Shown: positions 47,640-52,234 of the stretch, piece after piece
Position numbering within the stretch: the first letter of the stretch is position 1
Layout: each line of letters starts with the position of its first letter
Source of the DNA: a virus
Taxonomy: Duplodnaviria > Caudoviricetes
DNA: 64,000 bases
Reading direction: 5' to 3' (one strand)
Virus record (IMG/VR): IMGVR_UViG_3300043434_000734
Span: 64,001-128,000 of that record
Program-made: the position numbers and the translations under genes
Notes under the pieces: generated by a model
Databases searched by the model: none
What the model was told of the DNA's origin: nothing
Seen by the model: the letters and a program-made list of their open reading frames with translations, nothing else

Positions 47640-48413
47640 ATGAACTTACAAGAGAATATACAAAGAATTAAAGAAATGATGATTTCTGAGGAGATGGTAC
47701 AATCTGATGCTTGGAAATCACTAAAAAGCACGTTAGATATTCTTAAAACAAAGAAAAAAGTTTTACTATTAAGTTGTTCAAATAGACACAATTGGGATGA
47801 TGATAATATTGACATACCCAAGTCTAAAATGATTGCTATGTACCTTAATGAAGAATTGGGTAATAAATCGACCTTAATTGATGTATCCGAACTAAATATC
47901 GTTCCTTGTGAGGGTAATGTATCGAGAAAGGACGGTAACGGTTGTGGGGTTTTAAAATCCAAACTAAAAGATAAAGATAAAAACCCATCGGGTCAACATA
48001 GATGTTGGGCTAGTTTTAATAATCCAAAAGACGAACTTTGGAAAATAAGTAAAGAATTATTTGAATCGGACGTGGTTATATTTTTTAGCTCTATCAGATG
48101 GGGACAAACAAATATGTTTTATCAAAATCTAATTGAACGTTTAACTTGGATTGAAAATAGACACACAACATTAGGTGAATCTAATTTAGTTAAAGATATT
48201 GAGACAGGTTTTATTTGTGTGGGACAAAATTGGAATGGATCAAATGTAAACGATTTACAAAAGAAGGTACACGAATTCTACGGATTTAAAATAAATGATA
48301 AGTTATATTGGAATTGGCAGTATTCTAAAGATATGAATGATGAGACGGAAAAGTCATATAAAGATTCATATGTAAAATTTTTAAAGGACACTAAACTATC
48401 TGATTTTCAATAA
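47640..48413 (+). CDS. Flavodoxin-like NAD(P)H-dependent FMN reductase / iron-sulfur flavoprotein family
   Basis: KVLLLSCSNR..IDVSELNIVPCEG..ESDVVIFFSSIRWG..LIERL; start MNLQEN at 47640. Confidence 0.8.
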   Translation: MNLQENIQRIKEMMISEEMVQSDAWKSLKSTLDILKTKKKVLLLSCSNRHNWDDDNIDIPKSKMIAMYLNEELGNKSTLIDVSELNIVPCEGNVSRKDGNGCGVLKSKLKDKDKNPSGQHRCWASFNNPKDELWKISKELFESDVVIFFSSIRWGQTNMFYQNLIERLTWIENRHTTLGESNLVKDIETGFICVGQNWNGSNVNDLQKKVHEFYGFKINDKLYWNWQYSKDMNDETEKSYKDSYVKFLKDTKLSDFQ

Positions 48414-48847
48414 TAAATAACATTGATTCCACACTCACTCAGAAGTTGTTTGGCTTTACTTTGTGATTCTTCCCATTTTTCTTTATTTTTTGTGGTACAA
48501 ACCTCCTTACAATACACTGTCTTTATACCTGAATTAACAATTCCCCTTGCACAATCCATACAAGGTAATCCAGATGTTAAATAAATTGTTGAATTTTTAA
48601 GGGACACACCTTCTAATGCCGCGTTATAAATAGCATTACGTTCTGCGTGTTCTATCCAGAAGTATTTTTCAGGTCTTTCCTGACGTCCTTGTAATGAATC
48701 ATCTAAACCTCTTGGGAATGAATTATAACCCGTAGAAAGAACGTTATTACCTTCGCCCACAACTACTGCACCTATCTGTGTAGATTGGTCCTTAGATTTA
48801 AGTTTAACCACTTCTGCAATCTCTAAAAAATATCGTACCCAATCCAT
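48407..48847 (-). CDS. dCMP deaminase
   Basis: GYNSFPRG, HAERNAI, PCMDCARGIVNSGI; start MDWVRYF at 48847 coupled by TAATG. Confidence 0.93.
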   Translation of the reverse strand: MDWVRYFLEIAEVVKLKSKDQSTQIGAVVVGEGNNVLSTGYNSFPRGLDDSLQGRQERPEKYFWIEHAERNAIYNAALEGVSLKNSTIYLTSGLPCMDCARGIVNSGIKTVYCKEVCTTKNKEKWEESQSKAKQLLSECGINVIYY

Positions 48848-49161
48848 TATATTAATTTTTGTTTTGACCAATAATAAACTACTCCGTTAGCGAATCTCAT
48901 TAAATTTCTTGCCTCTTTTTTTAACATTAGGTTACCGGCTTGGATTAAATGTGAACGATTATGTAAATCAATCCCAATAACATACCCACCATCAAATTTT
49001 TCATATGTGGTTTCTTTTATCGGAATTTGATATTTCCCCTCATCATCGAGTTTTAACATCTTTATCATTTCGTCTTTTTTCGTCTTACATTCTATACCTC
49101 TAGAATATACTAACTTTTCTAAGACGTCTAACCTTAATTTACTGTAATCTACCTCGGCCAT
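48847..49161 (-). CDS. Hypothetical protein with SAP/HeH-like N-terminus
   Basis: YSKLRLDVLEKLVYSRGI...KKDEMIKML; start MAEVDY. Confidence 0.55.
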   Translation of the reverse strand: MAEVDYSKLRLDVLEKLVYSRGIECKTKKDEMIKMLKLDDEGKYQIPIKETTYEKFDGGYVIGIDLHNRSHLIQAGNLMLKKEARNLMRFANGVVYYWSKQKLI

Positions 49162-50982: not shown

Positions 50983-51016
50983 TTTAAAATTGTATTTTGT
51001 TTTTTGTTTAGTTTAT

Positions 51017-52234
51017 TTATTTTATTTTACTCATCATTTCCTTAATTCTTCTAAACTGAGGATTCTCATACGCTTTAGACTCAGATAAAACTTCAGTAGA
51101 TGAAGAAGATGATGGAGTATTAGAGATTTTTGTCGCAACTGATTCGGTAACTGTTGTTTTTGAACCTAATTCAGTTTTGATTGTTGCGAATAAAGACTTT
51201 GCCTCATTCATTGTAGAAACTGTATCGAATCTCTTTAAGATATTCAATTTCTCTTGTTTTGTTGTAGAATGTTCTGTAAACAAACGAGTAGCGTAAGCTA
51301 AGTTTGCATTAAATACGGCAACTTCGTTAAGTTTTTCCTTGAATAAAACTAATGCTTTCTTATATTCAGCGTTTTGCTTTTTTAAGTTTTCAACTTCTTC
51401 ATTCATTTCGTGACGACCCGCCTTGTATTTCATACCTTGACGTGGACCTTCACCTCTAACGTCATTTGCTTGTGTTCTTGCAGCTTCGGTAGTCTCAATT
51501 TCTTTAGAATCATCTTCTTCAGAAACCTCTTCTTCCTCTTCTTCTTCCTCGTCCAATTCAATTTCGTAAATTGTTTCTTCCTCTTCTTCAGAAACATCAC
51601 CCGCCATATCGTCAGATACAGGTGGGAAATCGGTGTCATCATCTTCAGAATCTAAACCATCAACGGGTAATTCCATTGTGTCTTCAGTTTCTAATGAATC
51701 TTCACCATCTAATTTAATGATGTATTCGTCTTCACCAGTATTGAAATCGATATTATCACCGTCTTTCTTAACTACAATACCATCTTCTGGTTTCATAGCC
51801 TTGAAAACCTTTAAAACTTCATCATCTGAAGCTGTGGTCATATCCATTACATCATCGTCATCCTCAACATCTGTATTATCTAAATCAGGTAATTCTAATG
51901 AATCCCCTTCTTCGTCATTAATACCTCCGTCAAGACCTTCGATGTCTTTACTTGGCTCATTATCGAGGTCTGTGTCATTTTCAGTATCGTCAGCCGTAGC
52001 TTCCTCATCTGACATATCGTCTTCCTCTTCTTCAGGTGTTGGTTGTTCGTCGATAGGAGTTTCTTCCTCCTCTTCTTTCGCAACTTCTTCCTCTTCTTCC
52101 AATGATTCTTTAAGCAAATCTTTAAGTTCTTCCTTCATAGTTGAAGCAAGTATACCTTTTGCATTTTGCTTTACTGCTTCTTCAAGATTCTGTACTTGAA
52201 GTAACGCTTGTTCTAAAATAGATTTTTCAGTCAT
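51017..52234 (-). CDS. Prohead core scaffold protein (gp22-like)
   Basis: Highly acidic core, C-terminal coiled coil NEVAVFNANLAYATRLF; between protease and capsid genes. Confidence 0.8.
   Translation of the reverse strand: MTEKSILEQALLQVQNLEEAVKQNAKGILASTMKEELKDLLKESLEEEEEVAKEEEEETPIDEQPTPEEEEDDMSDEEATADDTENDTDLDNEPSKDIEGLDGGINDEEGDSLELPDLDNTDVEDDDDVMDMTTASDDEVLKVFKAMKPEDGIVVKKDGDNIDFNTGEDEYIIKLDGEDSLETEDTMELPVDGLDSEDDDTDFPPVSDDMAGDVSEEEEETIYEIELDEEEEEEEEVSEEDDSKEIETTEAARTQANDVRGEGPRQGMKYKAGRHEMNEEVENLKKQNAEYKKALVLFKEKLNEVAVFNANLAYATRLFTEHSTTKQEKLNILKRFDTVSTMNEAKSLFATIKTELGSKTTVTESVATKISNTPSSSSSTEVLSESKAYENPQFRRIKEMMSKIK

Follow-up and report, generated by a model that had tools for sequence, protein, structure and literature searches.

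A Scaffold-Tail Helix at the Termini of Unrelated Proteins in a Giant T4-Type Phage: A Putative Prohead Address Tag

Introduction

How do prohead proteases and internal proteins find the core of a T4-type head, and what is the partner of the T4 capsid targeting sequence (CTS)? Both questions are still open (PMC9026906), and they are raised again by a 64,000-nucleotide stretch of viral DNA (Caudoviricetes; IMG/VR record IMGVR_UViG_3300043434_000734, positions 64,001 to 128,000; hereafter the window, meaning the whole stretch that was analysed), in which the short helix that ends the head scaffold protein recurs at the extreme N- or C-terminus of proteins with unrelated bodies. The source is a giant freshwater phage, a distant T4-type with a GC content of about 31%. 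An earlier note on this DNA, made from the letters, had suggested that such helices form a cargo-loading system for the capsid; its observation was partly confirmed in the present analysis and its interpretation partly supported. We favour, with moderate confidence, the reading that the motif would act as an address for the prohead: a copy of the scaffold tail, removed by the protease of the head, by which a tagged protein would be bound, packaged and cut, and perhaps ejected. No published description of the tag was found, and a literature search for the string QKLAGI (from the version of the tag in a second lineage, described below) gave no result.

The Tag and Its Terminal Position

The peptides quoted in the earlier note for the scaffold, a flavoprotein, a WYL protein, a protein starting at 31671 (hereafter the 31671 protein) and the prohead protease were recovered by translation at the positions collected in Table 1. 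Together they define a tag of 12–14 residues with the consensus L-x-E-x-[IL]-x-[RK]-[IM]-[KR]-x-[LM]-[MLI], an amphipathic helix with its hydrophobic residues spaced onto one face. The simple pattern [RK][IM]K.[LM][MLI] is found five times in the 20.8k residues encoded by the window, each time nine residues or fewer from a terminus. Four related IMG/VR genomes (335, 324, 269, and 251 kb), fetched whole, stood in for the source genome, and a 12-column hidden Markov model (HMM) built from ten tag sequences was used to scan the window and these genomes, that is 1769 open reading frames (ORFs) and 382,200 residues. At 6 bits or more, 27 matches were obtained in the five proteomes, 22 of them C-terminal, five N-terminal and none internal, compared with a total of 1.25 expected from shuffles that preserve local composition; the terminal enrichment implied by the earlier note was thus borne out, and the motif is not equally frequent inside proteins. 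Reversed decoys scanned with the same HMM gave eight internal matches and one C-terminal match. A position-specific scoring matrix derived from the scaffold and protease tails with their flanks had proved overfitted, matching those two families alone, and the 12-column HMM was used in its place.

Grouping by body homology places the tag-bearing matches in about ten families with non-homologous bodies: the gp22-like scaffold, the S77 protease, a flavodoxin-fold protein, a WYL-fold protein and several families of unknown function. The central claim of the earlier note, a portable terminal helix that copies the scaffold tail (and the tail of the prohead protease) onto unrelated proteins, therefore holds. 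Additionally, an all-versus-all comparison of terminal 26-mers regained the tag family unprompted, as a cluster of 29 nodes in which N- and C-termini are mixed; the same comparison returned signal peptides and several other leader classes.

It might be argued that an AT-rich genome yields many helices made of K, I, E and L, and that look-alikes have simply been picked by chance or compositional convergence. The identical RIKEMM of scaffold and flavoprotein, on which the earlier note leaned, is real but carries no significance by itself, as 14 exact hexamers are common to different window proteins compared with 11.7 in shuffles. Three of the eight helices that it listed (those of the portal, the 17..673 protein and the 60601 protein) are weak and do not hold. 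Moreover, the composition of termini favours such helices, with 56% of the chance matches in the shuffles falling in 18.5% of the residues, and part of the terminal bias is consequently compositional, although the expected terminal count is still below one. Against chance stand the 27 terminal and zero internal matches, the family-wide conservation of the tags beside poorly conserved linkers, the differing codons, and the terminal position of the octapeptide RMQKLAGI, the second-lineage version of the tag, in 119 of 121 cases among the matches listed. We consider convergence extremely improbable, and largely refuted already by the statistics of terminal position together with conservation. The codons that encode the five window tags differ and homologues vary conservatively, indicating a constraint on the peptide and not on a DNA element; a DNA-level repeat as the cause of the shared motif was ruled out on the same two grounds.

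Tags on the Scaffold and the Protease

The scaffold, 405 residues long, consists in translation of an N-terminal helix, a long acidic region, a helical core, an S/T-rich linker and the C-terminal tag. Its tail is invariant or nearly so in 26 aligned relatives, following the pattern ..YENPQF[KR]R[IM]K[ED][LM]MxK[IL]K, with V-T-E and L-S-E sites upstream in the linker; a conserved helix thus occupies the extreme C-terminus of the scaffold, preceded by a flexible linker. Scaffold and protease tails carry the motif in 80 of 80 related loci. The protease tail is kept across the clade as ..[DE][DN][RK]MK[KN]LMGxLDxFLSK, and its AMEDRMKKLM segment was aligned by BLASTP with ALAEAMKKAL, the tail of a T4-like gp21. 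In the T4-like Escherichia phage DalCa (L118), gp21 (2414–3052) ends in ..MALAEAMKKAL and the N-terminal region of gp67 (1750–1989) contains ..RKLFAEAMAAR, the two having [LF]AEAM in common; this may be a hint of mimicry between tail and core proteins in T4 itself, or chance.

Three further helices named in the earlier note are doubtful carriers. That of the portal is conserved in 79 relatives, but with K, N or T in the place of the central K, many of them reading KLNDIIND. The leader of the 17..673 protein, conserved in five homologues and continued by I-x-E-Q, falls below the HMM threshold, and the peptide of the 60601 protein lies outside the motif.

Candidate Cargo Proteins

Three tagged proteins of the window are candidate cargo, and their families have to be named with care: searches of Pfam and PHROGs gave no match for any of them, nor for the scaffold, and their assignments are at the level of the fold only. 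The name flavoprotein stands at that level and finds no support in Pfam (no match at E 0.01, FMN_red and Flavodoxin_2 included). Foldseek matches the 257-residue protein to FMN reductases, azoreductases, NQO and WrbA-like proteins (TM 0.4–0.6, with probability 1.0 for the FMN reductases), some of its 3856 homologues are named WrbA-type flavodoxin by JGI, and there is an Atlas lead; a sequence search of the PDB gave no match. In the AlphaFold model (pTM 0.76) the tag is part of a helix spanning residues 3–19, followed by a second helix and by the first strand from residue 41.

The name WYL protein likewise stands at the level of the fold, with structural matches and an Atlas lead; the Pfam family expected for WYL (PF13280) was not matched. 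The model shows a beta-barrel at about residues 20–118, some 100 disordered residues rich in P, E and K, and a helix at 217–236; the nine best structural matches (VIA) are to DriD, BrxR, PafBC and CapW, with Z of 6.7–8.3, a Z of about 8 lying within the range of a common arrangement. Nearly all of 120 homologues end in N-L-Q-E-S-x-x-[KR]-I-K-x-L-M-[FL]-x, with L224, E226, I231, K232 and L234 invariant and the linker variable. The protein is stand-alone: no helix-turn-helix for DNA binding was detected in it, and the capsid-type tag is present. In BrxR, CapW and DriD the WYL domain is a sensor of ssDNA or ligands, from which it may be speculated that an injected free WYL domain could counter host defence.

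The 31671 protein (166 residues) belongs to no Pfam, PHROG or Atlas family. It has orthologues in all four related genomes, and all five orthologues end in G-L-F-E-[EQ]-x-x-[KR]-[IF]-K-K-L-x-x. In the models, the tags are separated from the bodies by the second helix (flavoprotein) or by the disordered linker of about 100 residues (WYL-fold protein). Just upstream of the flavoprotein gene, a DUF5872-like ORF (window 46781–47629, plus strand) contains an internal ...MIISITEEQFQRLFEFNEETPVLIYE.. segment that forms, in one relative (G001), the N-terminus of a separate 131-residue gene product (127141–127536), which points to fusion or fission of a gene with a leader-bearing module.

A Cleavage-Type Junction Between Tag and Body

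The T4 protease gp21 cuts after L/I-x-E and removes N-terminal leaders as well as C-terminal pieces of gp21 and Alt (PMC9026906). At the sequence level, a T4-type [ILV]-x-E site is present between tag and body in N- and C-terminal tags alike, compared with a chance presence in about 20% of proteins for a comparable window. In the flavoprotein family, position 15 is I, L or V and position 17 is E, with a variable residue between them, in 106 of 106 homologues; the residues after other N-terminal tags are I-N-E, L-N-E or V-x-E, and C-terminal tags open with L-Q-E, L-F-E, [LM]-N-E or I-N-E. The capsid protein itself has L-I-N-E at residue 60 (codon 50803–50805), E60 being kept in at least 90% of 105 diverse homologues, and this is likely to be its maturation site, with cleavage after that residue.

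The strongest comparative evidence for a cleavage-type junction comes from a family of 181-residue proteins found in a relative. Most members start with MNLQENIxRIKEVMG[LI].xE and continue with TREG...; in several others an unlike leader, M.[IY]I[IL][ST]E.Q..., precedes the body, and the junction again falls between x-E and TR. Leaders thus behave as interchangeable modules at a protease-type site.

A LAGI Version of the Tag in More Distant Relatives

Distant scaffolds carry a related tail: that of Flavobacterium phage immuto reads ..SRWQKLAGIIK (ending ..SEQVSRWQKLAGIIK), that of Mel-JY01 ..ERMKKLAGIVK and that of LR756508 ..SRMQKLADIS. The C-terminal third of the window scaffold was aligned with the immuto scaffold (E 2e-11), the two tails being orthologous. 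In immuto, two other proteins start with MKKQILSEQF[RK]RMQ[KF]LAGIITE, and among cultured phages this LAGI leader was found in immuto phages only.

The exact octapeptide RMQKLAGI occurs at least 121 times in IMG/VR. At least 94 occurrences are at the extreme C-terminus, mostly of ORFs of 300–500 residues; a gene for a gp23-like capsid protein follows within 700 nt downstream in 78 of 94 among the matches listed, which marks these 78 as scaffolds. At least 25–26 occurrences are at the N-terminus of small proteins, and among the matches listed the 24 complete ones represent 21 unrelated body families, [ILVM]-x-E follows within seven residues in 26 of 26, and one or two of the 121 occurrences are internal. 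That each lineage places its own version of the scaffold tail on leaders is what would be expected if scaffold tail and leader share one partner. No cargo common to both lineages was found.

These data bear on another explanation, that the helix is a general element of interaction or localisation apart from the capsid interior, such as a coiled-coil for oligomerisation, an amphipathic helix that binds the membrane at the assembly site, or a signal for docking or degradation that a protease or chaperone recognises. Like many such elements, the tag is a short amphipathic helix with much K, I, L and M, and a complex prediction of the capsid protein with the last 48 scaffold residues was uninformative on the partner. 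However, two lineages have the motif as the conserved end of their scaffolds, each version having been copied onto leaders, and the site type of the head protease stands next to the tag, where leaders can be swapped. We therefore hold a general element to be quite improbable.

A Putative Route into the Prohead

If the tag is a prohead address, the following route may be proposed. The scaffold and the S77 protease, both tag-bearing, build the core of the young capsid, and copies of the scaffold-tail helix are placed at the extreme N- or C-terminus of unrelated proteins, with relatives tagging more families. Tagged proteins would then co-assemble with the scaffold in the prohead through the site used by the scaffold tail itself, candidates for this docking site being the scaffold core and, on the capsid protein, the inner face or the propeptide. 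The prohead protease would probably cut at [ILV]-x-E between tag and body, leaving the body free in the head, from which it may exit with the DNA.

Several observations weigh against this reading, besides the compositional leaning of protein termini. One of the 27 terminal matches is false, since in an Hc1 histone-like protein the motif belongs to the domain. Scaffold variants (RIKEMM and RMKDLM) and flavoprotein variants pair freely in 16 related loci and show no co-variation. Neither a flavodoxin-like enzyme nor a WYL domain belongs to the classic injected proteins, and [ILV]-x-E is a short and common motif. The octanucleotide TATTTATA that precedes the operons concerned is probably a late-type promoter of the clade, its late timing being assumed. 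Finally, no close relatives at the DNA level were found among sequenced phages, and there is no cultured close relative.

An explanation with the same address function and a different fate would make the tagged proteins auxiliary core or assembly factors (extra parts of the scaffold, chaperones or regulators of the protease) that are degraded or expelled at maturation, as are gp22, gp67 and gp68 of T4, and not delivered cargo. The motif is common to two transient core proteins, the tags are flanked by cleavage-type sites, and T4 core proteins are cut and exit the head (PMC9026906), all of which would suit such factors. On the other hand, the bodies that carry tags are folded domains of an enzyme-like or ligand-binding type, the set of cargo changes from one lineage to the other, as assembly factors seldom do, and tagged genes of the relatives lie in variable islands in which almost every gene has one of several leader classes, as in the loci of T4 internal proteins. 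We hold auxiliary factors to be unlikely. The leader classes of the islands are MK[IV][IL][IL][TS]E.Q[LI]K.. (31 proteins), MKL[IL]D[IL][IL].E (13) and M.K[IV][IV]K[LI]KQ.D (17). Some small island proteins combine one of these leaders at the N-terminus with a RIK-type tag at the C-terminus. The N-terminus of the window scaffold (52138–52234, minus strand; ..KSILEQALLQV..) resembles that of T4 gp22, MLKEQLIAEAQKI (L118:3083–3892), and also, loosely, the leader class M..I[IL][ST]E.Q; leaders may thus mimic either end of the scaffold.

Returning to the address-tag reading, a wider claim can be made tentatively, as a possibility that we consider rather doubtful: across a broad T4-related group, the scaffold-tail helix might be a handle for one prohead site, and any protein bearing a copy at either end with a protease site would be loaded, clipped and delivered with the DNA. 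Such a code would be simple, lineage-specific and engineerable, and it would explain what leaders of the CTS type bind. It would also mark a large and variable set of injected effectors, for example a free WYL domain that could interfere with WYL-regulated defences such as BREX or CBASS. For the address-tag reading itself, a copy of the scaffold tail as cargo leader gives a testable answer, namely that cargo competes for the docking site of the scaffold. By the same rule of sequence, proteins that may travel in the virions of uncultured phages can be listed, the LAGI version being present on at least 21 unrelated families. If the reading holds, foreign proteins could be loaded into large capsids with a short peptide fused to either of their ends.

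Comparison with Known Systems

In T4, the CTS of the internal proteins IPI–III and Alt directs them to the scaffolding core and is then clipped (Mullaney and Black, 1996, reviewed in PMC9026906 and PMC3012670). The present tag resembles it as a short terminal peptide on unrelated proteins (about ten body families here) in a phage with T4-type head genes (gp21/gp22/gp23), in leaders that end, here at the sequence level, in the L/I-x-E of a gp21-family protease, and in the variability of the cargo genes. Unlike the CTS, which is not known to resemble it in sequence and is N-terminal only, the tag is used at both termini and recognisably copies the C-terminal scaffold helix and the core of the protease tail.

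Propeptides of gp21-family proteases provide a second parallel, as the C-terminus of T4 gp21 undergoes processing and, in SPN3US, the protease gp245 requires its C-terminal propeptide, which is removed, for entry into the prohead (PMC9026906; PMC7411985). The protease of the window is of the S77 family as well, and its tail was aligned with that of a T4-like gp21. The tails of T4 gp21 and SPN3US gp245 have, however, not been reported to match a scaffold tail or cargo leaders, whereas here one core motif is present on all three.

Herpesvirus scaffolds have a coat-binding C-terminal helix, and the herpesvirus protease has the same C-terminus as the scaffold. This sharing results from nested genes, unlike the arrangement described here, in which separate genes are involved, the helix is also found on unrelated enzymes, and the coat is a candidate partner. 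A flexible linker followed by a short helix at the C-terminus of the scaffold is common to the window, herpesviruses, P22 and phi29, and coat-binding C-terminal helices are found in the scaffolds P22 gp8 (a helix-loop-helix) and phi29 gp7 (PMC3185693).

The earlier note had likened the tag to encapsulin cargo peptides, and the likeness is sound as an analogy only. Encapsulin cargo-loading peptides and the C-terminal targeting tail of the HK97 protease are likewise short terminal peptides behind a flexible linker that bring enzymes into an HK97-fold shell. The shell here is, however, not an encapsulin: portal, S77 protease, gp23-like capsid protein, terminase and tail genes are present, the motif is unrelated in sequence and the tags are apparently removed by a protease. 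A link between viruses and encapsulins has been described (PMC13669383).

Head Genes, Promoter-Like Motif and Gene Islands

On the minus strand, the window encodes in order the portal, two small genes, the S77 protease, the scaffold (in the gp22 position) and the gp23-like capsid protein (Table 1). The protease scores 79 bits against PF03420, for which the curated Pfam cut-off is 27. The nearest capsid proteins are those of Flavobacterium phage immuto, Microcystis phage Mel-JY01, RM378 and metagenomic huge phages, and about 600 relatives in IMG/VR, on contigs of up to 335 kb, have capsid proteins 77–83% identical to that of the window; the four genomes scanned above were taken from among them.

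The motif TATTTATA lies 3–40 nt upstream of most structural genes, including those for the portal, protease and scaffold, the genes in terminase position and of sheath size, the tail genes and others, and it is the reverse complement of the T4 late promoter box. It heads the head genes and both cargo operons, which gives a lead to their co-expression.

Table 1. Positions of the features discussed (window coordinates unless a related genome, G001–G003, is named)
Feature	Positions	Strand	Remarks
gp20-type portal	54509–56320	-	Pfam Portal_T4 PF07230, E 1e-77
Portal C-terminal helix ...IYEIETKIKDILND	54509..54559	-	Weak, doubtful member
Prohead protease, Peptidase_S77 (T4 gp21 family)	52323..53006	-	Pfam PF03420, E 4e-22; PHROG head maturation protease
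Protease C-terminal tail ...KKPAMEDRMKKLMGNLDTFLSK with stop codon	52323..52391	-	Tag core RMKKLM; ending ...MEDRMKKLMGNLDTFLSK
Head scaffold, gp22 position, 405 aa	51017..52234	-	Between S77 protease and gp23-like capsid protein
Scaffold tail YENPQFRRIKEMMSKIK with stop codon	51017..51070	-	Core RIKEMM at 51032–51049
gp23-like major capsid protein	49240..50982	-	tblastn to T4-like capsid proteins
Flavodoxin-fold (FMN-reductase-like) protein, 257 aa	47640..48413	+	Candidate cargo; starts MNLQENIQRIKEMMISEE
Flavoprotein N-terminal tag MNLQENIQRIKEMM	47640..47690	+	Followed by I-S-E cleavage-type site
WYL-fold protein, 237 aa	32852..33565 (32852/32786 starts)	+	Candidate cargo; ends ...LKESIKKIKSLMFS
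WYL-fold C-terminal tag VELKESIKKIKSLMFS with stop codon	33515..33565	+	From translation
31671 protein, 166 aa	31671..32171	+	Candidate cargo; ends ...FEQEIEKIKKLISY
31671 C-terminal tag GLFEQEIEKIKKLISY with stop codon	32121..32171	+	From translation
N-terminal leader of 17..673 protein (MLEQKLQEELNRYKAINKY...MIMEQE)	569..673	-	Possible divergent leader
TATTTATA, promoter-like motif	30906..30913	+	15 nt before first gene of operon with 31671 and 32852
TATTTATA	46250..46257	+	3 nt before ATG 46261; heads operon ending in flavoprotein gene
TATTTATA, further sites	36562, 40774	+	Sense orientation
TATTTATA, further sites	899, 11771, 13664, 15180, 18394, 27708, 29049, 52261, 53023, 56325, 58154, 61647	-	Sense orientation
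Candidate cargo islands of relatives	G001 39.5–51 kb (L102–L103); G003 239.5–252 kb (L132–L133); G002 149.5–154.5 kb (L091)		
Hc1 histone H1-like protein, 61 aa	L099:5289–5474 (G002 305289–305474)	-	PF07432, E 3e-15; orthologues in G001, G003

Further observations were made in the related genomes. The Hc1 gene of G002 adjoins a gene for a 412-residue protein with a C-terminal tag. In the 251-kb contig G004 (L135–L147), 555 short ORFs amount to only 68k residues and the genes for scaffold, protease and flavoprotein are broken up, pointing to either numerous frameshift errors or genuine decay. In G001, about 20 adjacent small genes at 3–17 kb (L101) start with M-[IK]-K-x-F-K-F-[FL], a separate family of N-terminal motifs.

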